The notes under the pieces: generated by a model | Told to the model about the DNA's origin: nothing | Seen by the model: only the letters and a program-made list of their open reading frames with translations | Databases searched by the model: none | Shown: piece after piece, positions 1 to 57,011 of the stretch | Layout: each line of letters begins with the position of its first letter | Numbering within the stretch: position 1 is the stretch's first letter | Assembly (NCBI GenBank): GCA_036172245.1 | Contig: JAYWIR010000009.1 | Coordinates: 620,001 to 684,000 of the forward strand | DNA length: 64,000 bases | Direction: 5' to 3' | DNA from: Raillietiella orientalis | Lineage: Eukaryota | Made by a program: the position numbers and the translations under genes

Positions 1-1134
1 CTCATGCATGAGGGTTTCACGGAACTGCAAGCAAAGGAAACAGAAGCTTTGAGATCTTGTGTTCAGCATCCCTATGATTTAGGTGAAGTATGTTTGTCAT
101 TGCTTGATGAATGGGAATTTCAGAAACTTTAAGTTTACGAATATGAGATGAGACATCATCAGAATCGATTATTGCATGAGGAATCACTGTGTTCGTTGTA
201 GTTGGTAACATCACTGCTGGTTTCACTATGCTGGTTGTACAGCACATTCATTAGAAAGAGTAATAGACTGTGTGGCTTGTGTAGAACCAGGAACCGAGCA
301 AAAGTTGAGGAAGAGGAGCGGTACTTGTTAGCACAAGAGTGATTCCTCATTTCTGTTCGATTTTATAGCAAGTGATTGGTGCGGAGGAGATGCAATTGGC
401 GTGCGTGGATCCTGTCGGATACTAGGAAGCTAAGCGCTAATATTTCTGAAAGGTTTGTAAGGATGGCTGCATGCAATTGATGAGCAAATGCTGTAATTAG
501 TGGTGTTTCTCTCTGGTGAAGGATAACATTGGTTTGGATTCTTTTACATACATTACTTTTGTGTTACTCTGTGTCATTGCTGAGGCAATTGTGGAATTCT
601 AGAAGTTATGAAATGCTGATTCACTATTGCAAGTTTTCTGCTACAAAGTGAACGGGAAGAAGTTCATCATGGGATCGTGACTCTGTGTTCTGCAGTTGAT
701 CATGTAGAAATCCTCTTATTTCTAATATTGAATTGGTGCCAGTTCATCACGCTGCTTCGTAGTTCTTCAGACTGATCATTTGTGAATCAGTGAATAGTGA
801 CCTTTGCACGGATTGCATGTTTCAATAGTACTGTGTTGTCGGATAGTTTCTTAAGGGAGAAACTGTTGATTACTTAATTTTGATATTATTATCAAACTCA
901 TATTAGAGGGGATAATTATGATTGTTTGGAGTTTTTCTTTAGTATATTCTATTTTGCAGTAATGCTTTTGGAATATTGCTTTCTAGATTTGGTACTTCTG
1001 TAAGTTCTGTTTGACGGAAAATTTGTAGTAGACAAGCATGGTTGACAAAAAGTTGTTGCCTACGAAATAGGAATCGCCTGTTGGAGAATCCTCGCGGTCT
1101 GTTTATCGGCTTGCATAGTTGAATTGGCGACAAC

Positions 1135-4100
1135 ATGTTGTCTAGTGCTATTAAAGAAGGGAGTTATACTGTTACCGTTTATAATTTGGTAAGTTTTCTG
1201 TGAGTGATAAATTGTAAGCTCATGATGTGTTTGTTATTGGTTTGTAAATTTGCGCATAATACGTTACACTTTTCAGATTAAAGAAAAGAAATTTAACGAG
1301 GCTGTCAGTGTTTTGAGTTTTATGTTGGAATCTAATGAAAATGTAAGTCCTTTTAATTTGGTGGTAAGAAGCACTTCTTGGCACTTCGTTGAGTTTTTTC
1401 AGCACAGCAAGGTTTGATTTATTTTTACTGTGGTTGTGTTTTGCACTCATTCCTCACCCTTTTCAGATTGCACTATGACATTTGGATCTTATTTTAAGTG
1501 TTTTTATCATTTCTTCCTTTTGTACATGCTGTAGTCATGACATTTTTCAGTCTAGAGCGATATTATCCATTTTGGCCTTCTGCTACTATAACCTTCAAAA
1601 CTATGTACTCGCAGCAGACTGCTACGAAAAGTTGTACCAACTTAATCAAGATGTCTCCATGTATAATTTGTATTATGCACAGTGCTTGTATCAAACCAGA
1701 CTGCTCGATGAAGCATTCAAAGTCACTTTGCAGATCGAAAATCCAGACCTTGCAAAACAGGTATTACATTAGATATTCTTTATTTTGTATAATGATATTG
1801 CTTAGTCTGTTAGTTGTATCAATAAGCCTTGAAACTGGTACTTCACAAATGAACACCATAAACTGGTAACTTCACAAAAAACGCTCCTACCAATATTAAG
1901 CCTTCTACTCCTAACCCCTCATCCCCCATTCTAACAATCAACCTATCTTCTACAAAATTAGTAACACCAATTAAAAACCATAAAGATCTAAAGACCATAT
2001 AAGTAAATATACAAACCTAGCTCTAAATTGCTCACCTCTCATTTCCTATCAATTCGTTAGCACTGTTATCATGCTACTAACTCACTCATATTAGTTAATT
2101 TAGTAAAGCATCGGTGTAATACAGCAGTAGAGTTTATTATTGTGGATTGTGTTTTCATTTTTATAAACTGTGGGATTGTATTGTAACATCATTATGGAAA
2201 GGGATTTAATTTGCAAGTCAGCCAAAAGGTCAGAAGACACCTTATTTGGCTTCACGTTAAGTAAATCAAGTGAACATAATTTTTGAAATATGTATACTTG
2301 ATTTCCTTTTTATTATTTCATGGTGATGATGTCTGCTTCCACAGCTCTGTAATCTTCATATGTTCACATTTGTGGTGCTAGATTAACTCACTGATTGTCA
2401 GAAATTTAGCATTTGAAGTGACAACAGTGTGATCATTGGCAACTGAAGTGTGCTTCTTGTTCATATGCTTGTACTTTCAAAAATGGAAATGCCACTTTCT
2501 TGGGCTTCGCTTGCATGTGCAGTGGATAAATGTTTTTCAGGTTCTCAAGCTACAAGCAGCAATCAAGTATGCTCAAGATGACCTAAGTTCTGCTCACAGG
2601 TACCTTGCTAGTTTTCCTGAAGCTGACCCTGATAAGGAGAATAACACTGGATGCATCTTGTACAAAGATGGACAGTACGATAAAGCATGTGAGAAATTTC
2701 AAGCTGCCCAGCAACAATTGGGTTTCAATGCTCAGCTGTCCTATAACATATCTTTGTGTTATTATCGAATGGGTCAACATGCTTTGGCTTTACAGCACAT
2801 TGGTTAGTTGTCCACAAAGATGCATTTATGTTTCATAGATACATTGTAGTGGACGTTATAGAGCATGGGGTGCAGAACTTCCCAGAACTGGGTGTAGGTT
2901 TAACTACAGAAGGTGTCCAAGTACCTAGTGTGGGCAATTCTCTACTTCTACACCAAACAGCTCTGATTGAGGCTTTCAATTTGAAAGCTGCAGTAGAATA
3001 TCAGTTAAAGAATTGTAGAGATGACTATTAACATTTCAAAGCACTGATGCATGCTTCAGATAGAGCTGCACAAGATGCTTTGACAGATATGCCCCCTCGC
3101 CTGGAACCAGAATTGGATGCTGTAACACTTCACAATCAGGCTCTGATTTATATGGATACTAATCCATCAGAAGGCTTTGAGAAGCTGCAGTTTTTACTTT
3201 CCCAGGATCCATTTCCACCTGAAACTTTTTCCAACTTGTTGCTTCTTTACTGTCGTTATGGTTATTATGACCTGGCTGCTGACGTTTTGGCAGAAAATGC
3301 CCACCTGACATACCAGTATTTAAGCCCAGTAGGTGTACCTACATATTTTTATCATCTATGAACATATTTTCATCATCTCTAATTAGTTTTTATATGACTT
3401 TCTGGATGCACTCATCACTCAACAGACTTGCCCAGAAGATGCATATGAAAAGCTGGAGCTACTGTTGCTTCAGCAGGTGGATGAATTGTGTCGGTTGAGC
3501 CGTCAGGTTCAGGATGCGAGGCAGTTGAAAGATGAAAATGCTGTGCACAATGCCATCACTCAGTATGAGGAAGTGTTGGACCGGTAGGCAGTAAAGCTTT
3601 GATATAGATTTCATGCTCTCTTGTGATAGATACATCCCTGTATTGATGGCCCAGGCACATATTCCATGGGAGCAGAAACAATACGCTCAAGTGGAACAGA
3701 TCTTTCGTACATCTGTGGAATTCTGCAGTGATAATGATATATGGCGCCTTAATGTAGCACATGTTCTTTTCATGCAGGAAGATAAATACAAAGAGGCTGT
3801 ATGTTTATATGAGCCATTAGTGAGACAGCACTATGATAAGGTGAGAGAACCCATGACTACAATTGTTTTATCAGCATGCTCCCAGATTTTAGATGTGAGT
3901 GCTGTTGTGTTAGCTAATTTGTGTGTTTCCTACATCATGATATCACAAAATGAGGAGGCTGAGGAATTGATGCACCTGTTAGAGAAGGAAGAGGAGGAAT
4001 TAGTGGCCTCAGATCCTAACTGCAAAGTATACCATTTGTGTATTGTGAATCTTGTCATTGGGTAAACCTCCAAAGGACTATGAATTTATTTTCCTCAGAA

Positions 4101-4526
4101 CTTTGTATTGTTCCAAGGGAAATTACGAATTTGGGATCTCACGCATCATCAAAAGTTTGGAACCTTATCCTAGGAAGTTGAGTCCTGATACATGGTGAAT
4201 TTTTTGTCATGGATGTATATGTTGTTCATATAAGATGCACAGGTTCTATGTTAAGAGGTGCTTTCTTTCATTCTTGGAAAGCTTAGCAAAGCATGTGACG
4301 TTTGTCAAGGATTCCCTGATACAGGAATGTATTGAATTTCTAGAAGAATGTGAAGGCAAGTGCAAGATAGTGAAGCTAGAGTTTGTTTGTTTTCATTTTA
4401 GTACATGGGGAAAATGTGAAAACTTCCCTGGAATTATCTTTGGGAGAAGGCATCACACCTGGAAAAAATACAGTTACTTATGAAGCAAGATATTTGAATT
4501 ATTTGTTTCGGAAGTATTGTTTATGA
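1135..4526 (+). CDS. TTC30: Tetratricopeptide repeat protein 30 / intraflagellar transport protein 70 (dyf-1/fleer orthologue), 12 exons, 647 aa
   Basis: Exons 1135-1188, 1277-1342, 1551-1760, 2541-2802, 2850-3014, 3060-3328, 3387-3583, 3630-3840, 3886-4061, 4099-4194, 4243-4355, 4402-4526 join in frame (1944 nt). Recognisable blocks: IKEGSYTVTVYNLIKE, SRAILSILAFCYY, ALIEAFNLKAAVEY, ALTDMPPR..ELDAVTLHNQAL, NLLLLYC.YGYYDLAADVLAEN, VLANLCVSYIM.SQNEEAEELM, HLCIVNLVIGTLYCSKGNYEFGISR, GKNTVTYEAR. All introns are GT-AG except 4356-4401 (GC-AG). Confidence 0.96.
1843..2050 (-). pseudogene. nad4: Nuclear mitochondrial insertion (NUMT) of part of nad4, inside TTC30 intron 3
   Basis: Minus strand in invertebrate mitochondrial code reads MFTYMVFSSLWFLIGVTNFVEDSLIVSMGDEGLGVEGLMLVGAFFVKLPVYGVHLW(TGA), matching the ND4 motif AF.VK.P.YG.HLW. 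Upstream GNE..EQFSAS (frameshifted) resembles WGNQ.ER..A. Strong GT skew unlike the rest of the intron. Confidence 0.82.
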
Positions 4527-4614
4527 ATTCATGAAAACAAGTGAACAGTGTTTCTGCTGTCTCAATTTTGCTGATGTCAGTGGGTTGCTCATTATTTGGG
4601 AAGTGACTGGCATC

Positions 4615-4650
4615 AATAAATTCATGATGTATTTTCTATGTACTAATAAA
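4615..4650 (+). promoter_or_regulatory. Candidate polyadenylation signals of TTC30
   Basis: AATAAA at 4615-4620 and 4645-4650, about 90-120 nt after the stop codon. Confidence 0.45.
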
Positions 4651-5678
4651 AGTTTACTATCGCTATTTTGGAATTAAATCACAGTTCTCTGCTGTGAATA
4701 TTGTAATGTTGAAAACGGGACCACTCTCAAGGTAAATATTCTTGAATTTATTTAGAGATTCGCGGTTATCATTCCACTGCAATCAGCAGAGCAAGGTGCT
4801 TTTGCAAGTGACCAGGTATTCCAGGAGATAATATCTTTCAGATGGTCAGTATTAGTTTTCATAGCCTGAAATAATCCCCAATGCAATACAAACATGAAAG
4901 AAAACGCCAATTGATTTGACTGTTCGTTAAACCGAATAGAAGTTCTTTATTTGAATGAGGAGTTCTTGACGTTTGCGGTTTTAAAATGTCCTCAGCACTA
5001 TTTTCGTTTTGAGCCCAGTGATTGTTTCGATGCAGTTTCATATCGGAGATGGCCCTGCTCAAAGGTCGGTATATGGTTTAAATCCCTGAAAAGGAAAAAC
5101 TCGATGAAAGAAAGCTTCTAAAGTTTACCAAATCGAGCGATCTCAGACGCTGTGGTCAGCAAGTTCGTGAAAAAGAAAAAAAGAAACGCTTCGTGTACGA
5201 TTCTCACCTCACCCGGAAGACGATCTTCCAGCCTGCAGTGGTTTTTTATGAAGAACCATCCATGATTCACCTGCTGTTTTGACGCTGTTCTGAGCTGCTC
5301 GACACTTTTTGCCATGCAATGGAAATGATTTAAAAATGCACCGAGGAGGACGAAAGTATTTCATTTGTAAAGAGAAGATCGGCAGTGTGCCTCATTATTT
5401 TTCCTGCTTTTGCGGTTCCGTTATCGGGAACGATCTGAGAACGATAAGGAAGTCCCCAGCCAGTCTGAGTCAACTGAACTAAGAGCTCCTTCGACCATGA
5501 GCTGGATTTGAAGTCAAAAGCGTATCGAGTCACTCAGTGATGCCAAAACCGGATGTTGAAAACTGGCATCGGAACTGGTTGGCCATCGATCGGGGCCATT
5601 TTATAAGCTTTGCCCATGTCGAAATGCTGATAAGATGGAAGCCAGAAGTTTTTCAGATCATCAGACAGCATAGACATC

Positions 5679-5714
5679 AGACGACGGAACATCCGTCTGG
5701 ATGTTCCGTCGTCT
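5679..5714. repeat. Perfect hairpin, 16-bp stem and 4-nt loop
   Basis: AGACGACGGAACATCC-GTCT-GGATGTTCCGTCGTCT; the arms are exact reverse complements. Confidence 0.9.
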
Positions 5715-6369
5715 TACTCCTGGTTCCTTTTAAATTTTGGATGCCCGAAGGAGCAAAAGGAAATTCGACGAAACAATCTTTTCCTAATTCCATTGCTTGG
5801 GTTGAAGACCTTTGGAATCCTTTTTGCAAATGGTGGAATAACGCATTTGCAAAAATTGTAGATATTACAAAGCATTTGCAAGAAGGGTCAAGAAGAGTTG
5901 ATCCTCCTCAGAGAACTGAATTTTCGGATCCAAAGCGATCTCGAGAATTATCTCGGCGAAACAACACTGATATCTGAACACTTCATGGCTCCTGAATACA
6001 GGCTGCAGGAGCTCAACCATCATAAATGCAATCGGCAGTTCTTTAGAACGCTGTTCGTTGTTGACAGCGAAGCTACTTTTTGCTGTAAAGTTATGGAAAA
6101 CTCTTCATGCATCTGATGTGACCCGATGAATTTTGAAAGGCTTCGCCATTCGATGGTTAGCATGGCTGTAATGAGCAAAAGTTCTGCTGGCATCACACGC
6201 GTGGAAAGCAGAATGGGAGCATGGGTCCTCAATATCCAATGGCCCTCTATTCTTCGGATATCCCTCGTACGACGACTTCGGTAGCTGGCTCTTGTGTTAT
6301 TCATGTATATATAAAAAGAAGAGGCCACCCATTATGTCCTGAACGATGTCCTCTTCATAGTCATGTCAC

Positions 6370-7120
6370 AACATAACATCTGGACATGCTAAGGAGCCGA
6401 CTATTTTCCTCTATTGCTTTTATTTCTGCATCACTTCAAAAATGAAGCGATCTTTTAGAAAAGACAAATCGCTCATACGGAACATATCAAATATAATGAA
6501 GCCACTCTGATCACCTTGAGATTTTGGAGTCGTCTATTAAATTCATATGTAAAGAAATTGGGACCACGTGCAATTTGCGGTAGCGATCTCTCTCGCTACA
6601 TTCTTTGCTCTGTTCCATTCTTTTTCTTATAGATATTACAATTGCTGGAAACCAAGTAAGTCCAATCTTATTTTAAGGGCAACAAGATGAAGACATGTTC
6701 AATACTCAGCGCGTTCAAGATATTTTGTCTTTGCAGTGTTGAATTTATGAATTAGATCTTTAAATATGTCGAAAAATCACAGTCACTTATTTAAAACACA
6801 TTATCTTATTGAGAGTGAATTTCTCCTGACTGGAAAATGGCCTTATTTACAGATAACAGATCCAAGGATGACCTCATATGCTGTCAGTCTCCGGATTCGC
6901 GGTGAAATCTGGCACTCCCTGAGGTTTTGTCGGGTTATTCAAAAAGGAAATTAGATCTTCGACGAATCGGATCTCTTACTTAAATAGAAGTATCTTCTAA
7001 TGAGAACATTTCAGCATTTTTCCAAGTGAATGCTGCCAAGCATCACGCGCCAGAAAAGTGGCTTCCAGGGTTACAAAGAGTCCTCCTTGCTCTTGCACAG
7101 CTCCATGAAACTCATTTTGT
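6370..7120 (+). pseudogene. Putative endogenous viral element: decayed N-terminal part of a Mononegavirales/chuvirus-like L (RdRp) gene
   Basis: Across frameshifts, motifs occur in L-protein order: LDMLRSRLF (~6380), YGTYQI/MKPL (~6476-6507), EFLLTGKWPYL (~6817-6849), WHSLRF (~6910), DESDLL..RSI (~6961-6995), PGLQRVLLALAQL (~7065-7103). No premotif A (KEREL K) or GDN core seen. Flanking 5150-6370 and 7120-8040 also look like decayed coding DNA. Confidence 0.4.
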
Positions 7121-25849: not shown

Positions 25850-26180
25850 AAACCCCGAGCGCTTCCGACCTCCCTCTGCTTCGGAGGATGTACGGGATCT
25901 CCAAGCAGGGAGTTGAGGACATAGGAAGAAGTGTATCAGAGACACTGCATGACGAGAACATGCATGATCGGGGGTCACCGGAATGGCAATTGCCTACGTG
26001 AGGATGGGCTGCAGGGTGGCCTCGCCTGCAAGGAGTGAAGGAGGGGACCTCCAGCATCCAGAGTCGGTTTTGAAATGAAGGAACGACAGACACCAATGAC
26101 CCTTGCCCCAGCCTCTCTTTATTTTATTTTATTTTCTCTTATTCCCCATTCCCTTTCACCCCTTACCTTTCCCGGTTTTC
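25850..26180 (+). mobile_element. Decayed 3' end of a Tx1/L1-like element abutting the CRESS insertion
   Basis: AAGWPRLQGVKEGTSSIQSRF resembles ASRWRRLRKHLPALVRIQTRM at ~42170, and is followed by the same tgaccc-pyrimidine tail. Confidence 0.5.
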
Positions 26181-26189
26181 ATATACTCA

Positions 26190-26342
26190 TCCCGGTGTAC
26201 ACCTACTCTGCTTCGCATAATTACGTTTGTTCCTCATATAATTACGCTTACGAAGAGACCATCTCCGACGCATACGACGTAATTTCATAAAGGCCAAAGA
26301 TCTTCGATAAACGCGATAACGAGCACGTGTAACCACAGCTAT
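26190..26342 (-). pseudogene. CRESS capsid protein, arginine-rich N-terminal arm
   Basis: (ATA)AVVTRARYRVYRRSLAFMKLRRMRRRWSLRKRNYMRNKRNYAKQSRCTPG, divergent from Rep and starting ~75 nt from the origin hairpin. Confidence 0.72.
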
Positions 26343-26417
26343 GTCAAAACATGAACTAAATGCACAAACACAGAGAAAACAGTAACCCTCAAACCTGTTC
26401 TCCACTTCAAAATGCCA

Positions 26418-26448
26418 GAGGTCAGGGTAATACTTCACTTGTGACCTC
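26418..26448 (-). promoter_or_regulatory. CRESS rolling-circle origin: stem-loop with nonanucleotide AAGTATTAC
   Basis: Stem GAGGTCA (26418-26424) pairs with TGACCTC (26442-26448). GTAATACTT at 26427-26435 reads AAGTATTAC on the minus (Cap-coding) strand. Confidence 0.85.
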
Positions 26449-26498
26449 CACACACATATAAATACAACACAACACACACACACACACAACCAGTCACC

Positions 26499-27371
26499 AT
26501 ACCGTACCCTTCAGTTCGGTGCTTAACGCTGAACAGCCATACATCCACAGAAGATCAACTGAAAACATGGATTACCCAAAACTGCAACCGGCATAATCGG
26601 ATAAACATCAAAAGGATCTGCACGATCCAACAAACAGTACTGCTCTAAAGAGGATGAGAACTCTTGGACCTACGGAAACGTTACAGACCTAAACAAACCT
26701 ACAATTCACGGAGAGGTACGAAAATACAAAACAACCTAACCTGATCCAACATTAGCTACATCTACTTTCAGATCTTGTGGACTCAGGAAAAAATGAAAAG
26801 TGGATTTGGCAACACAAACCAGAGTTATACGAACGACACCGAACATTCATTCTGGATAGCGTACGCCTCTCCAAAGCAACACAAATCATCGATCCAGTGA
26901 TCTGCGAACACCTACAACAGTGGCCAAAAGGTCTTCTCGACATGATACAAAGTGGACCAGACGGAAGAGACGTACACTGGTATGCTGATTACCAGGGAAA
27001 GAGCGGCAAACCAACAACGGCCAAGCATATCTGCATCAATTATGGCGCAACCTATTTGACCAATTGCAAAAAATCGGGTGCCTCGTATATGTGCAATGGA
27101 GAGAGGATCGTCATCATCGATCTCACCAAAGATGTACAAGAAATCATCAATTATGGATTAATTGACACCATTAACAATAAGGAATGGAATAATAAGGCCA
27201 CTTTTCAAACTTTTCAATCGTCCGCACGTGGTGGTCTTCGCAAACATGGATCCCAACTACGAAAAAATGTCATCAGATAGATGGATAGTCCACTTTATTA
27301 ATGAAACAAATGAAAACCACACAAACTTCATTAGTAACTTGAATAGCAAAGGCCCTCGACACCTACATTGA
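26499..27371 (+). pseudogene. rep: CRESS replication-associated protein (HUH endonuclease plus SF3 helicase), frameshifted
   Basis: Motif I CLTLNS (26520), motif II deleted, motif III NKQYCSKE (26638), Walker A WYADYQGKSGKPT, Walker B IVIIDL, INYGLI..NGII, motif C PHVVVFAN, Arg finger MSSDRW. At least three frameshifts; start codon reads ATA. Confidence 0.93.
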
Positions 27372-28150
27372 AAAGATGTATTCCGCGCGCCTTTGAAAGC
27401 GAAATAGAATCTGCTATATAAACGAAACAAAGGTTGATACTTATTTAAATAACCATCCTTTCCACTAGATCCAGACACCTGCCATGCTCGAGGAACCAAA
27501 AGTCCATCAACATGCTTCGTCAACTTCAGTTCCCCACCATATACATCCAGCAAGCTGTTCAGCCTCTTTTCCAGTTTGCAGCCATGGACAGCACTGGCAA
27601 TCAACTGCTGCAGCATTTGCATCTCGGTTTGAGTTGCCACTGAACGTTCCCACTGAGTACAAGGCCTCACAGATCTCGGTTTGAGTTCGCAAAATATAGA
27701 TGATCTTCTATTCTGATACCATGTCAAATGAGTCCAAATAGTAGCATGGTCCAATACTTCTATGTGATTAAAAAGCTCTTCTGGCGGATTTGTCATAACC
27801 AAATGATTATCATATGAATACCCTCCAGCAATTTGAAAATCCTGCATATTTTGTGTTCATTTTGATCAGAAAACGTCTCGGTCGAAGGCTCAAGAGGGCA
27901 TCCCACACCACACAACTTGACAAATTCAAAACTTTTTTTCATGACATCCAAATGACGTCTACTAATTATATAACTCATTTTCTCACTTCAACGAAGATCA
28001 GTAACCAAAAAACAACACACAGAAGATACCTCCTGACGAGCCGGACAACCCAAACCAACTACTTGACCAATAGTTGCAGCATGCTTCGTAAAATCAAAAC
28101 AGCCAAAAGAAAGACGTCAAAGAAGTCTTCAAAGCAGGACCAATCCACTT
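27372..28150 (-). pseudogene. CRESS capsid protein, middle and C-terminal part
   Basis: Convergent on Rep. FLVTDL, KSFEFVKLCGV...P (FEYY.I..V-like), ELKPR, and terminal RLYSRFYFAFKGAR, typical of circovirus-like Cap C-termini. Frameshifted. Confidence 0.65.
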
Positions 28151-28299
28151 CTCGGATTCCCTCATTTTTTTTTTGTGCCCTCCTCCCCCCTCTCCCGTCC
28201 CAGACTTTCGGGTATCCCGATCTGCGTGTTGGTGGACCCTTCCCCTTGTCTTCGGTTGGGAACCAACGCGTTCCCAGCATGAAGCGAACAACCCGGCAT

Positions 28300-52700: not shown

Positions 52701-55700
52701 GGGTGGTCGCTTGGCGAACACCACGTAAGACGCCGCGAAACATTTCTCCAGAGCTTCGCTGACCGATGCCACCGAAATTACGCACCGCGGCTCTTTCGCG
52801 GTGGTTTCGCTTGCTCCCGGAGGTTCCTGCCGAACGGCATCCGATGCGTAGGTGGATTCCCGCTTTGCTCGCTCACCCATGAAAAGGGGAACAGAGGCGT
52901 GACTGGCTTTCCGAACGACGGCTTGGTCTCTTCGGAGACGCCGCATGCAGCGTTCCCCCTGGGCTGCGACCTCCCTTCAAGAGCGAAAGGTTTCAGGTGC
53001 GTGCGACGCACGTCAGGAAACACTTTCTCATCCAGAAAGAGAGGTTGCAAATTTCCACCCTTGACTCACCTACCGCTTGGGAACCACCCATTCGCGTTTC
53101 ACCCTGGCGAGGGGAGAACTCTGAAAAGGAAGCGTTCCTTACCTGGTCTTTTGCTGGGAAACGCCGAGGTTCCTGGCAGTTACAGTTCATTCCTGAGGAA
53201 ATGCACATCACGTAAGCTCCAGACAACTTCTGTTTCCGGATGGCCAGATGTAAATCCACCCTAGATGCGTGCTCGCAGTCTCCGATCACAAAGCTACGCC
53301 GAAGCTTTCGCGAAAGAGTTCACAATGCACCTTTTCTCTCTCAAACGTTATTCTCGTTGCTTCGAGCCCTCGTGGTCAGTTTCTCAAAGATCGGGAACCA
53401 CGTCGTGAGACGAGCATGCGCAGTTCATGGCCGAAGAAAAAAAAAAGAAAGGCATTTCCATTTTCTCCCTCTATCTCTCTCTCTCTTTTTTTTTTTTTTA
53501 TTTACTTGCAGGTAGGAGACGTCAAAGTCTCCGAGAACCAAGCGTTTGGACTGATCGATAGGGTTGAAAACCAAGAATACGACGTAAGGAGAATTGATGG
53601 CGTGCTTGGGTTGTCCCAATCTAAAAAGACAAGTGACGACGTCTTCCCAAGTTTCACCGAAAACCTTCGTAACCTGAAGCAGATTCCTTCGAAAACATTC
53701 TCCGTGGCAATGAAAAGGTACATTCAAAAGATTTAAAGCTTCTGATGATATTCGCGGTCGTACAATTTTGGGCGCCCGTGAGTGCTTTGACGGCGTATGA
53801 AAGACGGCTGCGAATACGACCGCTATCAGCTTACAAGAGAAAATTCTAGAGCTGTGTGTCTAAGGGGAGAGGGAGAGAGAGAAAAGCTTTCACAAGCATC
53901 CCTGATATCGGAAAATGTCGAAGACTTCATGAATGAATCGATGTGGAAGATCCGCAAGCGCCTTTCCTACTGGGCAGACTTCCTGATGATGTTTGCCAAT
54001 TGCTACGAACAGACCGTCATGCAGTCGTGAATTCGTCGCAAGTCGAGAACCTTCCGGAAGAATCAAGGAACAGAGGGCCTCCCACCGTTGGCAATTCTGG
54101 TGCAACACCCCTACGTTCCTCACCGGGCGTGCGAGCACCGTACTCGAACATGAAACAACCTTGCTCCCGCTTAGAAGGTACACCTTCGAAACACCACCGA
54201 GCGGAAATTTCGAACCTCTCCAGCGACGGAGACGGCGTGTTGCAACACTTTCTTAAGATCAAGTGGGGCCCCCGGTTGAACCCCCACAGTATGTCACCAG
54301 AGGAAACCCAGCCATGGTGTGAACCCGCAGTAGGGAATCTCTGATTCCAAGCATGGAACTCGCTGCTGCCTTCCGAATTCGTGGGAGCAAACGAAAAGGC
54401 TAGCGAAAAGTCAGGCGTACCAGGGACGCCTCTATGTACACCACGAAACCTCTGCGGTGCAAGGCCAGCGTCTGCTTCCAAATCCCGAACGATCCCGAAA
54501 GATCTTAAAACTAAACACATATCTTCATTAAATATATTCACATATAATAATGTATTAATGTATAGTGTAGATTCATGTATAGTTTAATGTATAGTTTACT
54601 GATGAATGTATAGTTAACTGTATATTATAAATCTAAAAAAATAAATATGGATGCTTATCATGTACATCGGCATATATACTTAAATGTGCATGAGTATACG
54701 AATGTATTTTAACTGATGTTTACTAACACATATATTATCGATATAATTAATCATATGTATTGATATATTATTAATGTATTGAACGAAAATTAAATATTAT
54801 TGGAAAATAAGTATATACGTTTATTGTATAGATTAATGCACGTAGTAAATATATATGAAATGAATATATAAATGGCGAATTTTCAACTTTCGATAAATTT
54901 CGATAAAAAATTGTGAGAATTCAAAATGGCAGATTAAAATGAAAAAAGCAAACAAATTAAAAAAACGAGACAAAAAATTTGGTACTTCCTTTTCCTGTCG
55001 TTTCCAATACTCAGTAAGTGACACTTCCCCTGGAAACGGCAAATTTTATTTTCAGGATTTCGATCTTTCGATAAATATGTATGTTTATAATTCGATATAT
55101 ATATATATATATTCACTTCGTATATATTTATGATATGTGTAAATATCAATTAATGAAATACATATATTTATTGTAATAATCTTCCATATATATAAATCAT
55201 TTATTAATACACATTTATATCAATACTGTGTATGTTAATAAGTATTAATGAATATGTATGTTATAATGAATTTATTTATTAATTTATATAGTAGAATGGA
55301 TAATATACGCATATATCTATTTTTCATGATCTCAATAATATATATACGAATATATATATATAATATGTATATTTATAATTTATTTATTTATTTATTTAAT
55401 AAACATATTATAAATTATATTAAGAATACTTATCTTGATAAATATTAATAAATATGGATGCTAGAATACATTTGTGTATTGATCTATACATAGATGTGCA
55501 TATTAGTATGCATAATAGACATATGTATTTTTTTTTGGATGATCTTTCGGGATTTTGATCGGCAGCGAGGAATCCGAAGTTCCACCTCGTGAGTGGCTCG
55601 CCTGTATCTACTGGGTGGTTGAATTATTCTTTCCGTTCACGTGAGCTTGTCTCTTTGTCATTCATCACCCGCCATCACGAATGGGTGCTATCGAAACCAT

Positions 55701-57011
55701 TTCATCCTCGGGAGAAACACAGGACACTACGAAGACAGGACACTCGCAGGAGCAAGAGTTGTGCGCGTGAACCATCGAGCAGGCGAGTCCCGTGCCAGGG
55801 GCGCTAAACGACGACCTCCGATCCCAGTCGTCGGGCATCCCGGTCCGGAACCCGTGGCAGGTCGAGCAGCAGAGCTCCCCGTCCGCTCCACCGGGCGTTT
55901 CCAGCGTGATGCACCCAAGGTCTCACTTGCCGGCGGGCGCGCAAGCTCCAGGATCACCTTCCCGCCTGCACGCGACGCGGGTCTCGCGGGTTCCCGCTCT
56001 GAGCGTCCACCGACGAGAGGACCTCGCTGACCCGAGCGCACTCGGCGCTTCCCCCGCCTTCAGGCCGACTGCGGATGGATGAGAAGAGCTCGTGCGGCCG
56101 CGGGCTCCCCGCCACTTGATTGGTCTTCTCGAAACCGGAGAGCTGAGGATGACCTCTCAGCTCCGCCCCGTCGGCAGCAGCCGCTGCCTCTCTGCTCCTC
56201 CGCGCGCCTCTCCCGAATTCCAGAGAGCCCGGCGGGGAGCGTCCGCGCGAATCAGAGGCAGGGCCGCGCGCGGCGACGAGCGGGGCGCTAAATGACCGCT
56301 GCCTTCCTTTGCAGAAGCTCAGAGTCCTCGACGTGCTTCAAAGGAACTCTGACGATCGGCGCAACGATTCCGAAGAACAAGCAGCCCATCGTGATCGCGA
56401 AGCCGTTCGACTCTGGGTCGTGGGTGTTCCCACTCAACAAGTAAGAGAGCGAGCGAGTTCGGGGGCGCGGGACGCGCGCGCGCCCGGTGGCAACACCCCG
56501 TCGAACGATCGCGCTGCCGTCCTCAGGGTGCGCTTCGGCAAAGTGAACCTCTGCGAAAAGCAGTGCAGGGCCGTGCCGTTCCCGGGATGGCACGGGATCC
56601 TGTTCTCCAGAAATTACCACACTCTGGTGACCAGCGAGATCGACCGATACAGGTCGATACCGGAAGCCGAGTCGGTAAGCATCTTGGCGACCGTGTCGTC
56701 TTCGTCCACCCTCACCGCTTCCCTCCCCCAGAAAAAGGACCCGTTGAAGTTCTTCTTCAGCATAAACAACAAGAACTTCGAGATTCCCTACAGCAAGCTG
56801 GTGGGAAAGGTAAGAGTCCGTCGCGCTGAACCACGGAGTCGTTGAGCGAACGTATCCCCGGAAGCTGAGCACGGAGATCCCGACGGACGAGATCCTGATT
56901 TCTGAGCATGAGCTGGGCGCAGACCTCATCATCCTGGGAGACGTCTTCTTCGCCGAGTTCCACTCGTTCTTCGACTTCAAAAACTCGAACATCCAGCTGT
57001 TCAAATACTGA
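49771..57011 (+). CDS. Pepsin-like (MEROPS A1) aspartic protease homologue, predicted catalytically inactive; 5' end unresolved
   Basis: Phase-consistent exons 49771-49949 (...IVLDMDFDGL), 52137-52257 (EYFVYGSFGSNMQKLPLLVDTLSKDIWV), 52300-52415 (YSSTF...GRVHG), 53512-53717 (VGDVKV.ENQAFG...IDGVLGL...FSVAM), 56315-56440 (GTLTIG...SWVFPL), 56527-56674 (LCEKQCRAVPFPGWHGI), 56732-56809 (FFSINNKNFEIP), 56865-57011 (IILGDVFF..FHSFFDF.NSNIQL). No stops in the joined frame. Confidence 0.85.
53890..54270 (+). pseudogene. Possible decayed glycosyltransferase family 54 (MGAT4-like) fragment inside the protease intron
   Basis: DFMNESMWKIRKRLSYWADFLMMFANC resembles F.DS...VR.R.KQN.DY.FL..C. After frameshifts: RIKE...WQF...FLTGR, YTFETP, GVLQHF. 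Weak, by-eye similarity only. Confidence 0.28.
54520..55535. repeat. Extremely AT-rich low-complexity block in the protease intron
   Basis: (TA)n-like tracts; taaatatggatgct recurs at ~54642 and ~55449; sharp borders with GC-rich flanks. Confidence 0.85.

Follow-up and report, generated by a model that had tools for sequence, protein, structure and literature searches.

A fossil CRESS virus genome, probably nearly whole, in the DNA of Raillietiella orientalis

Overview of the element

The window analysed here, 64,000 nt of Raillietiella orientalis DNA (assembly GCA_036172245.1, contig JAYWIR010000009.1, positions 620,001–684,000 of the forward strand), contains what appears to be a nearly whole fossil CRESS virus genome. 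Its Rep gene and replication origin are recognisable and a probable capsid gene is split between its two ends. The preliminary description is confirmed in part. We consider the chances somewhat better than even that the locus is a dead, unit-length endogenous CRESS copy, opened inside the capsid gene and likely inserted by host end-joining. The element represents a known kind of viral fossil in unusually complete form; it is not a new kind, and no function is indicated. Judged by its sequence, the virus lineage is an unclassified one within Cressdnaviricota.

Table 1. Features of the endogenous element and its immediate flanks (positions in the window)
Feature	Position	Strand	Details
Left flank tract, host or junction DNA	26100..26189	none	plus strand pyrimidine-rich; AT skew -0.54, GC skew -0.67
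Arg/Lys-rich open reading, putative capsid N-terminal arm	26190..26345	-	52 codons; stop 26187-26189
Origin-of-replication hairpin	26418..26448	-	stem GAGGTCA/TGACCTC, 7 bp; loop 17 nt
Imperfect (CA)n run between hairpin and Rep start	26449..26488	none	period 2, 21 copies, 80% matches
Damaged exon 1 of Rep (HUH endonuclease domain)	26499..26715	+	profile 80-109
Candidate retained intron of Rep	26716..26755	+	GT...AG, 40 nt, includes TAA at 26737
Exon 2 of Rep, with linker and SF3 helicase	26756..27371	+	profile hits E 1.3e-38 and 1.9e-13
Putative rest of the capsid gene, convergent with Rep	27375..28150	-	suggested by layout, composition and ORFs
Right flank tract	28155..28215	none	plus strand pyrimidine-rich; AT skew -0.68; T10 at 28164-28173

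Composition and boundaries

The element coincides with a sharp-edged AT-rich island that extends from ~26100/26190 to ~28150/28170, with a GC content of 40–44% (31–51% per 100-nt window) against 55–60% (54–63% per 100-nt window) in the flanks. The AT-rich composition is uniform across the Rep half and the right-hand half, with an abrupt shift only at ~28150. At 1961 nt (26190–28150), the island compares with 2029–5100 nt in related viral contigs. The left junction falls within 26100–26195 and the right one within 28117–28170, their exact placement being uncertain by 30–90 nt. The left flank tract includes a (TTTAT)5 microsatellite (26118–26143, detected by TRF), and the tracts bordering both ends of the island, purine-rich on the minus strand, could be of either viral or host origin.

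Comparison of the island with the window revealed no terminal redundancy, no direct repeat at the ends and no internal repeat, and a target-site duplication of at least 10 nt was not found at the island ends. When the flanks and the island were compared with the whole 64 kb, no second copy, empty site or repeated flank was detected. Among 54 flanking ORFs, Pfam gave nothing above cut-off and a single PapA_C match below it.

Origin of replication and genome layout

The preliminary description of this locus placed an origin hairpin at 26418–26448, between the starts of two divergent genes. The hairpin is confirmed as a real CRESS origin: its loop holds a canonical nonamer, AAGTATTAC (plus-strand coordinates 26427–26435), though on the minus, cap-sense strand and not on the Rep strand. 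The plus-strand loop read as a nonamer, TAATACTTC, has two mismatches, and the minus-strand reading fits better. The folding energy of the hairpin is unremarkable on its own (z of -0.11); among 115 seven-bp hairpins in the window, nonamer-like loops occur at two sites, 26418–26448 and 55190–55220 (listed twice). The distance from the nonamer-bearing hairpin is 51 nt to the start of Rep and 76 nt to that of cap. A nonamer of the NAGTATTAC type within a hairpin is present in 69 of 80 related viral contigs, and 17 of the 67 that have the nonamer on one strand only are likewise ambisense and carry it on the cap-sense strand.

The ambisense arrangement itself, with the origin between the rep and cap starts, also stands: Rep runs on the plus strand and an Arg/Lys-rich reading on the minus strand. 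Two long ambisense ORFs, of 174 and 199 codons, reach lengths that were matched or exceeded in 13/1000 and 4/1000 dinucleotide shuffles of the island, respectively. Since the origin is intact and internal to the insert, the insert ends do not lie at the Rep nick site, which upholds the earlier suggestion of a break away from the origin.

Rep gene and its candidate intron

A profile made from 106 database Reps was searched against all 2156 six-frame ORFs of the window. Three colinear pieces on the plus strand were the only ORFs with E < 1: 26605–26736 (profile positions 80–109, E = 9.1e-5), 26756–27277 (positions 117–255, E = 1.3e-38) and 27162–27368 (positions 267–305, E = 1.9e-13). The helicase piece has 856 database relatives at E ≤ 1e-3, the best at E = 1.1e-19. 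These matches confirm, at the level of predicted protein, the CRESS Rep that had been described as running rightwards from 26499 to 27371. The Pfam models proposed for checking it did not recover it: neither Viral_Rep (PF02407) nor RNA_helicase (PF00910) matched any of four Rep pieces at E ≤ 1, and it is our own Rep profile that matches. PF02407 is found at E ≤ 1e-3 in 19 of the 20 best relatives (above the gathering cut-off in 18). A word-index search with the Rep piece returned no match, and a PDB search with the helicase piece returned no Rep.

In the endonuclease domain, a CLTLN sequence resembling HUH motif I is found at 26520; it is colinear with profile positions 14–36 and scores just 1.6 bits, which is not significant alone. 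Motif III, YCSKE, with the catalytic tyrosine of the YxxK pattern, is kept within the first profile match. Motif II (HxQ) is missing, as profile positions 37–79 face merely 19 nt (26589–26607), where the frame also changes; ~110 nt spanning this motif appear to have been lost from Rep. Because the flanking motifs are colinear, we read the absence of motif II as a later loss. In the helicase, Walker A (GKSGKPT), Walker B (VIIDL) and motif C (VVVFAN) of the SF3 type all fall on conserved profile columns, and exon 2 also contains SDRW. Its lesions are a frame change with a short loss at ~27170–27200 and a 9-nt tandem duplication at 27200–27217. The characterization of this Rep as decayed holds for the loss of motif II, for the lack of any in-frame ATG upstream of exon 1 and for the two frame changes (~26600 and ~27175), but not for one further break, which is probably an intron.

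The same damage indicates that the copy is endogenous and not a contaminant, because a gene without motif II or an in-frame ATG and with two further frame changes cannot function. That the locus is an assembly chimera, or an exogenous virus contig contaminating the scaffold, is very improbable on these grounds, and the element is embedded as a single unit, with 26 kb of the window on one side of it and 36 kb on the other.

The break in Rep at 26716–26755 is probably a retained intron, positioned as in related viral contigs. Rep is split at the equivalent profile position (~108) in L015, L032, L036, L040, L041 and L044, with gaps of 53–74 nt, and GT...AG ends were seen by eye at the splits in L015, L032 and L040. 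Skipping the 40 nt, with X at the joint, yields a continuous match to profile positions 80–255 of 155.9 bits, compared with 18.8 and 130.1 bits for the two pieces separately. An alternative 56-nt GT...AG intron with its acceptor AG at 26770–26771 is out of frame in the present sequence and was rejected. Rep introns occur generally among CRESS genomes (PMC6186406). A Rep intron would imply replication in a nucleus with a spliceosome.

Putative capsid gene

The Arg-rich reading described as running leftwards from ~26340 is present, with 18 Arg plus Lys in 40 residues (window starts 26321–26330). This density is reached at four places in the six frames of the analysed stretch, or in 33 of 46,010 stop-free 40-residue windows. 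No ATG opens the reading, whose first Met lies ~20 codons in, and comparisons with related-contig ORFs and cluster profiles, including by hhalign, detected no homologue. Where homology is lacking, capsids are recognised in the field by an N-terminus that is Arg-rich or disordered (PMC6186406).

The right-hand 775 nt had been described as the rest of Cap, leftwards from 28150 to 27375; we infer the same identity, and homology does not bear it out. The minus strand holds ORFs at 28116→27988 (42 codons), 27987→27793 (64 codons) and 27856→27257 (199 codons), and no frame is open across the rightmost ~35–90 nt. The 199-codon ORF continues for 115 nt beyond the proposed cap end at 27375, entering the 3' end of Rep. 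The profile and structure searches proposed for Cap recovered no capsid relative. Pfam searches with 10 window pieces gave chance-level matches only and no capsid model, IMG/VR scans with single window pieces gave no usable match and no capsid relative, and four pieces searched against the PDB gave nothing relevant and no capsid. With the 199-codon ORF, a word-index search returned no match; the ESM Atlas returned cytokine families at 0.80–0.84 (best 0.84), which, at a recognition of 1720, we take as noise. Neither the 360 non-Rep ORFs of the 80 related contigs nor the 11 capsid-cluster profiles made from these contigs gave a match to the cap pieces, the few phmmer hits at E < 0.01 being alternative frames of the Rep region, and hhalign against the clusters of those contigs gave probabilities of at most 1.1%. 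A single-sequence AlphaFold model, with a pLDDT of 41.8, is unusable; it is mostly helical where least uncertain.

Given these results, one may ask whether just the capsid arm, origin and Rep (26190–27371) are viral, the remaining 775 nt, adjacent by chance, being either unrelated AT-rich DNA or a piece of a larger virus that does not encode its capsid. The failure of every search to find capsid homology, the partly helical, low-confidence model and the overrun into Rep would all suit this explanation, which we nonetheless regard as unlikely. The 775 nt match the Rep half in composition, the sharp change coming only at ~28150, and lie tail to tail with Rep like the corresponding region of ambisense relatives. 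An open stretch of 160 codons within 27375–28150 is also rare, being reached by 8/1000 shuffles. To our knowledge, ~2-kb CRESS genomes all need a capsid gene of roughly this size. Capsids of CRESS viruses, moreover, often have no detectable homology (PMC6186406). As no capsid relative was found, the reading of the locus as one circle rests on layout, size and composition.

Relatives and classification

The related set comprises uncultivated CRESS viruses from IMG/VR and Logan assemblies (loci L001–L080, proteins P0002–P0151). They share with the element the NAGTATTAC-type origin, the intron position (at least six contigs) and, in the fraction given above, the nonamer on the cap strand. Unlike it, they are free, 2–5 kb long and have intact genes. 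Their Rep helicases are 25–54% identical to that of the element in the matched stretch; none is close, the best standing at 34% identity and 87–89 bits, and their capsids have no match in the window. When the two best Rep relatives were scanned against IMG/VR, P0002 led only to L018, already part of the set, and P0003 to no match.

Members of Gredzevirales (Arfiviricetes), namely Lamposivirus of Ouroboviridae and Sthenivirus of Gandrviridae, match the Rep profile of the element's relatives. Against the Rep piece itself they score weakly, at 22.1 and 18.5 bits (ranks 219 and 233 of 269), and we claim no family membership. Cycloviruses (Circoviridae) are ambisense, with the origin nonamer on the strand that encodes the capsid, and in some cases have Rep introns. 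They may serve as an analogue of the layout seen here, in which all three traits appear to be combined; membership is unsupported, as the window pieces match none of the Pfam Viral_Rep, RNA_helicase and capsid models.

Among endogenous elements, the closest likeness is to those of cyprinid fish, in which complete circovirus genomes occur in tandem (Dennis et al. 2019, PMC6372831). Like the element as read here, these are whole CRESS or circovirus genomes that carry both rep and cap and became fixed in the germline of an animal. The present copy differs from them in being a single unit with no tandem repeat, in the distance of its Rep lineage from the solved or named Reps of circoviruses and in having a putative capsid with no detectable homology. 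The same paper states that most endogenous elements are rep-only and that both genes were present in only four cases. Since tandem complete circovirus genomes of cyprinid fish are already in print (PMC6372831), the novelty first claimed for the locus was overstated.

Route of capture

Under the explanation that we favour, about one genome length, i.e. the present 1.96 kb plus ~0.1 kb since lost, would have entered the chromosome as double-stranded DNA after a break within the capsid gene had opened the viral circle. Entry was likely by host end-joining repair, possibly at a polypyrimidine tract. The resulting order would be the capsid N-terminal arm (leftwards), the origin hairpin, Rep with its intron (rightwards) and the rest of the capsid gene (leftwards). 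The insert would then have decayed, and it most likely does nothing. One circle broken inside cap is the simplest fit because of the size of the insert, its uniform composition and the lack of terminal redundancy; we infer that its two ends were adjacent on the viral circle, and end-joining would be the corresponding mechanism. The more specific version, in which an intron-bearing, unit-length replicative-form circle was opened in cap and then joined to the ends of a germline break that lay within a polypyrimidine tract, is tentative, and we put it at rather less than an even chance.

Alternatively, a longer head-to-tail integration, whether a rolling-circle concatemer or a tandem array, may have been deleted later to about one unit. 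Tandem complete genomes are documented in cyprinid fish (PMC6372831), and the unit length of the insert is approximate, its exactness not being demonstrable. Such a history is nevertheless improbable, as the island shows neither terminal redundancy nor internal repeats and deletion that stopped at about one unit would require a coincidence. If the insert is a trimmed multimer, the break inside cap is uninformative on how the circle opened.

Less probable still is capture through RNA, in which a LINE reverse transcriptase would have copied a cap-sense transcript that had continued around the circle by read-through. Downstream of the island, as read on the minus strand, there is indeed a purine-rich tract containing (AAAAT)n at 26118–26143, and the Rep intron would survive in an antisense transcript. 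The tract, however, mixes G and A and lies 50 nt off the island, unlike a poly(A) tail; no AATAAA was seen by eye upstream of 26190 on the minus strand, and the missing target-site duplication (≥10 nt) also argues against this route. Moreover, the 3' end would fall in the middle of cap and not at the end of a message, and 5' truncation would need to have landed by chance beside the 3' end on the circle.

Implications

Most metagenomic CRESS viruses have no host assigned, and a chromosomal fossil ties a CRESS lineage to a host. Three features that are usually lost are retained in the copy in R. orientalis: its origin, the starts of both genes and, probably, an intron in Rep. Under the best explanation, what the chromosome took up was genomic DNA that had been opened at a point other than the Rep nick site, and the locus provides an anchor, datable in principle, for a lineage otherwise known only from environmental assemblies. 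If the reading as a unit-length insert joined by end-joining is true, the locus would be a clean footprint of Rep-independent capture with origin and intron intact. It would also be the first case in which a chromosome links a spliced-Rep CRESS lineage, so far known from metagenomes alone and with a capsid that has no detectable relatives, to a host.

Rep gene and its lesions

The element at 26190–28150 is almost certainly an endogenous CRESS Rep gene together with its origin. Pfam gave no match for the four plus-strand Rep pieces, nor did a word-index search for Rep. A phmmer search with the 174-codon ORF at 26756–27280, run as a full pass over 1.84 billion representatives, returned 856 proteins at E<=1e-3, 33 of them reaching E<=1e-10. 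The top relative has E 1.1e-19 and 34% identity, and the alignments end at about query residue 141, the site of a frame change. In the 20 top relatives scanned, Pfam Viral_Rep was identified at E<=1e-3 in 19 (18 above the gathering score) and RNA_helicase in 12; the majority of ten top relatives looked up lie on contigs of 1.3–3.9 kb. A profile built from 106 of the 150 listed phmmer hits, those 260–400 residues long, was compared with all 2156 six-frame ORFs of at least 15 codons in the whole window. Only three, in colinear order, fell below E 1 (see table). The 856 relatives and these three matches bear out the preliminary description of a decayed Rep running rightwards over 26499–27371.

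Features of the insert and its flanks
Feature	Position	Strand	Match or structure	Content
Rep ORF	26605–26736	+	profile 80–109, E 9.1e-5	YCSKE (motif III)
Rep ORF	26756–27277	+	profile 117–255, E 1.3e-38	Walker A and B
Rep ORF	27162–27368	+	profile 267–305, E 1.9e-13	motif C, SDRW
Origin hairpin	26418–26448	nonamer on -	7-bp stem, 17-nt loop	
Left flank tract	26100–26189	pyrimidine-rich on +		(TTTAT)5
Right flank tract	28155–28215	pyrimidine-rich on +		T10

A motif I-like CLTLN at 26520 matches profile positions 14–36 with only 1.6 bits, and no in-frame ATG was found upstream of it. The counterpart of positions 37–79, motif II included, is just 19 nt long (26589–26607), so about 110 nt of Rep are missing, and the frame changes at this site. 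The frame changes again at about 27170–27200, where a short stretch is also lost. The loss of the motif II region, the lack of an in-frame ATG and the frame changes speak against the island being a contaminating live virus. In the Rep helicase, next to the second frame change, 9 nt are perfectly duplicated in tandem (ACTTTTCAA x2) at 27200–27217.

Candidate Rep intron

Comparison with related sequences suggests that another interruption of Rep is probably a retained intron, for which 26716–26755 is the candidate. Between 26736 and 26756, a stop and a change of frame fall at the exact point where Rep is split in relatives: in the related IMG/VR contigs L015, L032, L036, L040, L041 and L044, Rep is divided at profile position ~108 into two ORFs, with AT-rich gaps of 53–74 nt between them. 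By eye, the gaps in three of these contigs (L015, L032 and L040) start with GTAT and finish with TAG, TTAG-like. In the window, GT at 26716 and AG at 26754–26755 delimit 40 nt, and removal of these, with X at the joint, yields a single match to profile 80–255 of 155.9 bits, as opposed to 18.8 and 130.1 bits for the unjoined pieces. A stronger-looking acceptor at 26770–26771 would put Rep out of frame. Presence of the intron in the insert would mean that the captured molecule was unspliced in the Rep sense. CRESS genomes with Rep introns are already in print (PMC6186406).

Origin of replication

The origin hairpin proposed earlier has a nonamer in its loop, on the minus strand and not in the presumed plus-strand reading. 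The minus-strand loop reads CAAGTG-AAGTATTAC-CC, and its nonamer is the canonical NAGTATTAC, which departs from TAGTATTAC or CAGTATTAC at the variable first base alone; the plus-strand loop TAATACTTC, taken as a nonamer, has two mismatches. The folding energy is ordinary (z -0.11; 78 of 200 shuffles fold equally well). Among 115 seven-bp hairpins with 9–20-nt loops in the 64-kb window, a nonamer-like loop occurs at two sites. The second of these (55190–55220, listed twice) is weaker, with 2 mismatches, and is probably due to chance. A nonamer in a hairpin was detected in 69 of the 80 related contigs, one of which has AAGTATTAC; the Rep strand carries it in 47 contigs, the opposite strand in 20, and both strands in 2. 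In 17 of the 20 opposite-strand contigs the largest non-Rep ORF is on the nonamer strand, which is the layout of the window.

Putative capsid gene

From about 26345 the minus strand encodes leftwards 52 codons, very rich in Arg and Lys, that end at the island edge. The Arg-rich reading described from 26342 holds, with 18 R+K in 40 residues, a content seen in 33 of 46,010 stop-free 40-residue windows, at 4 places in the whole window. Minus-strand ORFs of 42, 64 and 199 codons lie on the right side of Rep, in a tail-to-tail arrangement with it. Of 1000 dinucleotide shuffles of the island, 4 contained an ORF of 199 codons or more, and a 160-codon open stretch arose in 8 of 1000 shuffles of 27375–28150 alone. 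The 199-codon ORF overruns the proposed cap end by 115 nt, into the Rep 3' end, and no minus-strand frame is open through 28150–28116.

No capsid was recognised in the putative Cap pieces (minus strand, 26345 to 26190 and 28150 to 27375) with Pfam, an IMG/VR pattern scan, the ESM Atlas, the word index, the PDB, phmmer against 360 non-Rep ORFs of the 80 related contigs, or 11 profiles of 116 candidate capsid ORFs; the top hhalign probability was 1.1%, and an AlphaFold single-sequence model had a pLDDT of 41.8. Long minus-strand ORFs are present at 28150–27375, the putative rest of Cap, but capsid homology was found in none of the searches. In the 80 related contigs, 31 putative capsid ORFs form one large cluster and are unusually long (for example, 492 aa).

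Extent of the insert and route of integration

In 1-kb windows the island has a GC content of 0.44 and 0.40, as opposed to 0.58–0.60 on its left and 0.55 on its right; in 100-nt windows the fall starts at about 26050–26100 and finishes at about 28150–28200. The junctions are placed to within 30–90 nt. The flanking pyrimidine-rich tracts could come from the host, as a single polypyrimidine tract that was a fragile target and is now divided by the insert, or alternatively from the virus, as a purine-rich coding tract cut by the break. Pfam cut-offs were not exceeded by any of 54 long ORFs from other parts of the window. Other AT-rich stretches lie at 1–7000 (35–43% GC) and 54000–56000 (38–39%), the rest of the window having 50–66% GC; the Rep profile matched neither stretch, and the 188-codon ORF at 54020–54583 has no Pfam match.

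We lean, by a modest margin, towards the island being one unit-length circle opened in cap. It comprises 1961 nt (~2.07 kb before the Rep loss), related contigs being 2029–5100 nt, its composition is uniform over both halves, and an N-terminal arm stands alone on one side, with a set of ORFs of body size but no arm on the opposite side. It has neither terminal redundancy nor an internal repeat, and its ends carry no direct repeat. A capsid relative to which the two putative Cap pieces could be aligned was not found in searches that included the 80 related contigs. A trimmed tandem array is a less likely alternative, with a precedent in the tandem genomes of carp (PMC6372831).

The intact origin lies about 230 nt from the edge of the insert; the ends are therefore not at the Rep nick site, and the break is away from the origin, as first described. 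Because the two divergent gene starts, the origin (which is not transcribed) and the Rep intron are all present in the insert, and its ends are off the nick site, the simplest route would be end-joining capture of the double-stranded replicative form: this DNA would have been opened within cap and captured into the chromosome by host end-joining. Insertion of a cap-sense read-through RNA by a LINE is improbable. The intron is no argument against it, because an antisense transcript would retain the Rep intron, but there is no target duplication and no poly(A) tail, inspection by eye shows no poly(A) signal, and this route requires a coincidence of ends.

Relationship to known elements

The relatives of Rep are uncultivated Cressdnaviricota. 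Named viruses that match their profile belong to Gredzevirales (Ouroboviridae and Gandrviridae), a profile match and not a tree placement; direct matches of these two families to the window Rep are weak (22.1 and 18.5 bits). The relatives' profile matches solved Rep structures, e.g. 7lar (E 1.3e-29), which we take to be porcine circovirus 2; the window's own Rep piece has no Rep match in the PDB. The closest Rep relative, P0002, has been deposited under a Methylococcales MAG as a hypothetical protein, but its contig of 3.9 kb is probably that of a CRESS virus binned with a bacterium. The relatives P0173 (670,825 nt) and P0237 and P0245 (about 21 kb) are on long contigs and perhaps represent additional endogenous copies, in other genomes.

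Endogenous CRESS elements are a well-known class, in which some have both genes and some consist of whole genomes in tandem (PMC6372831, PMC6186406); passages of PMC10193959 yielded nothing relevant. The island is a real, dead CRESS-virus fossil, unusually complete, of a kind of element already known.
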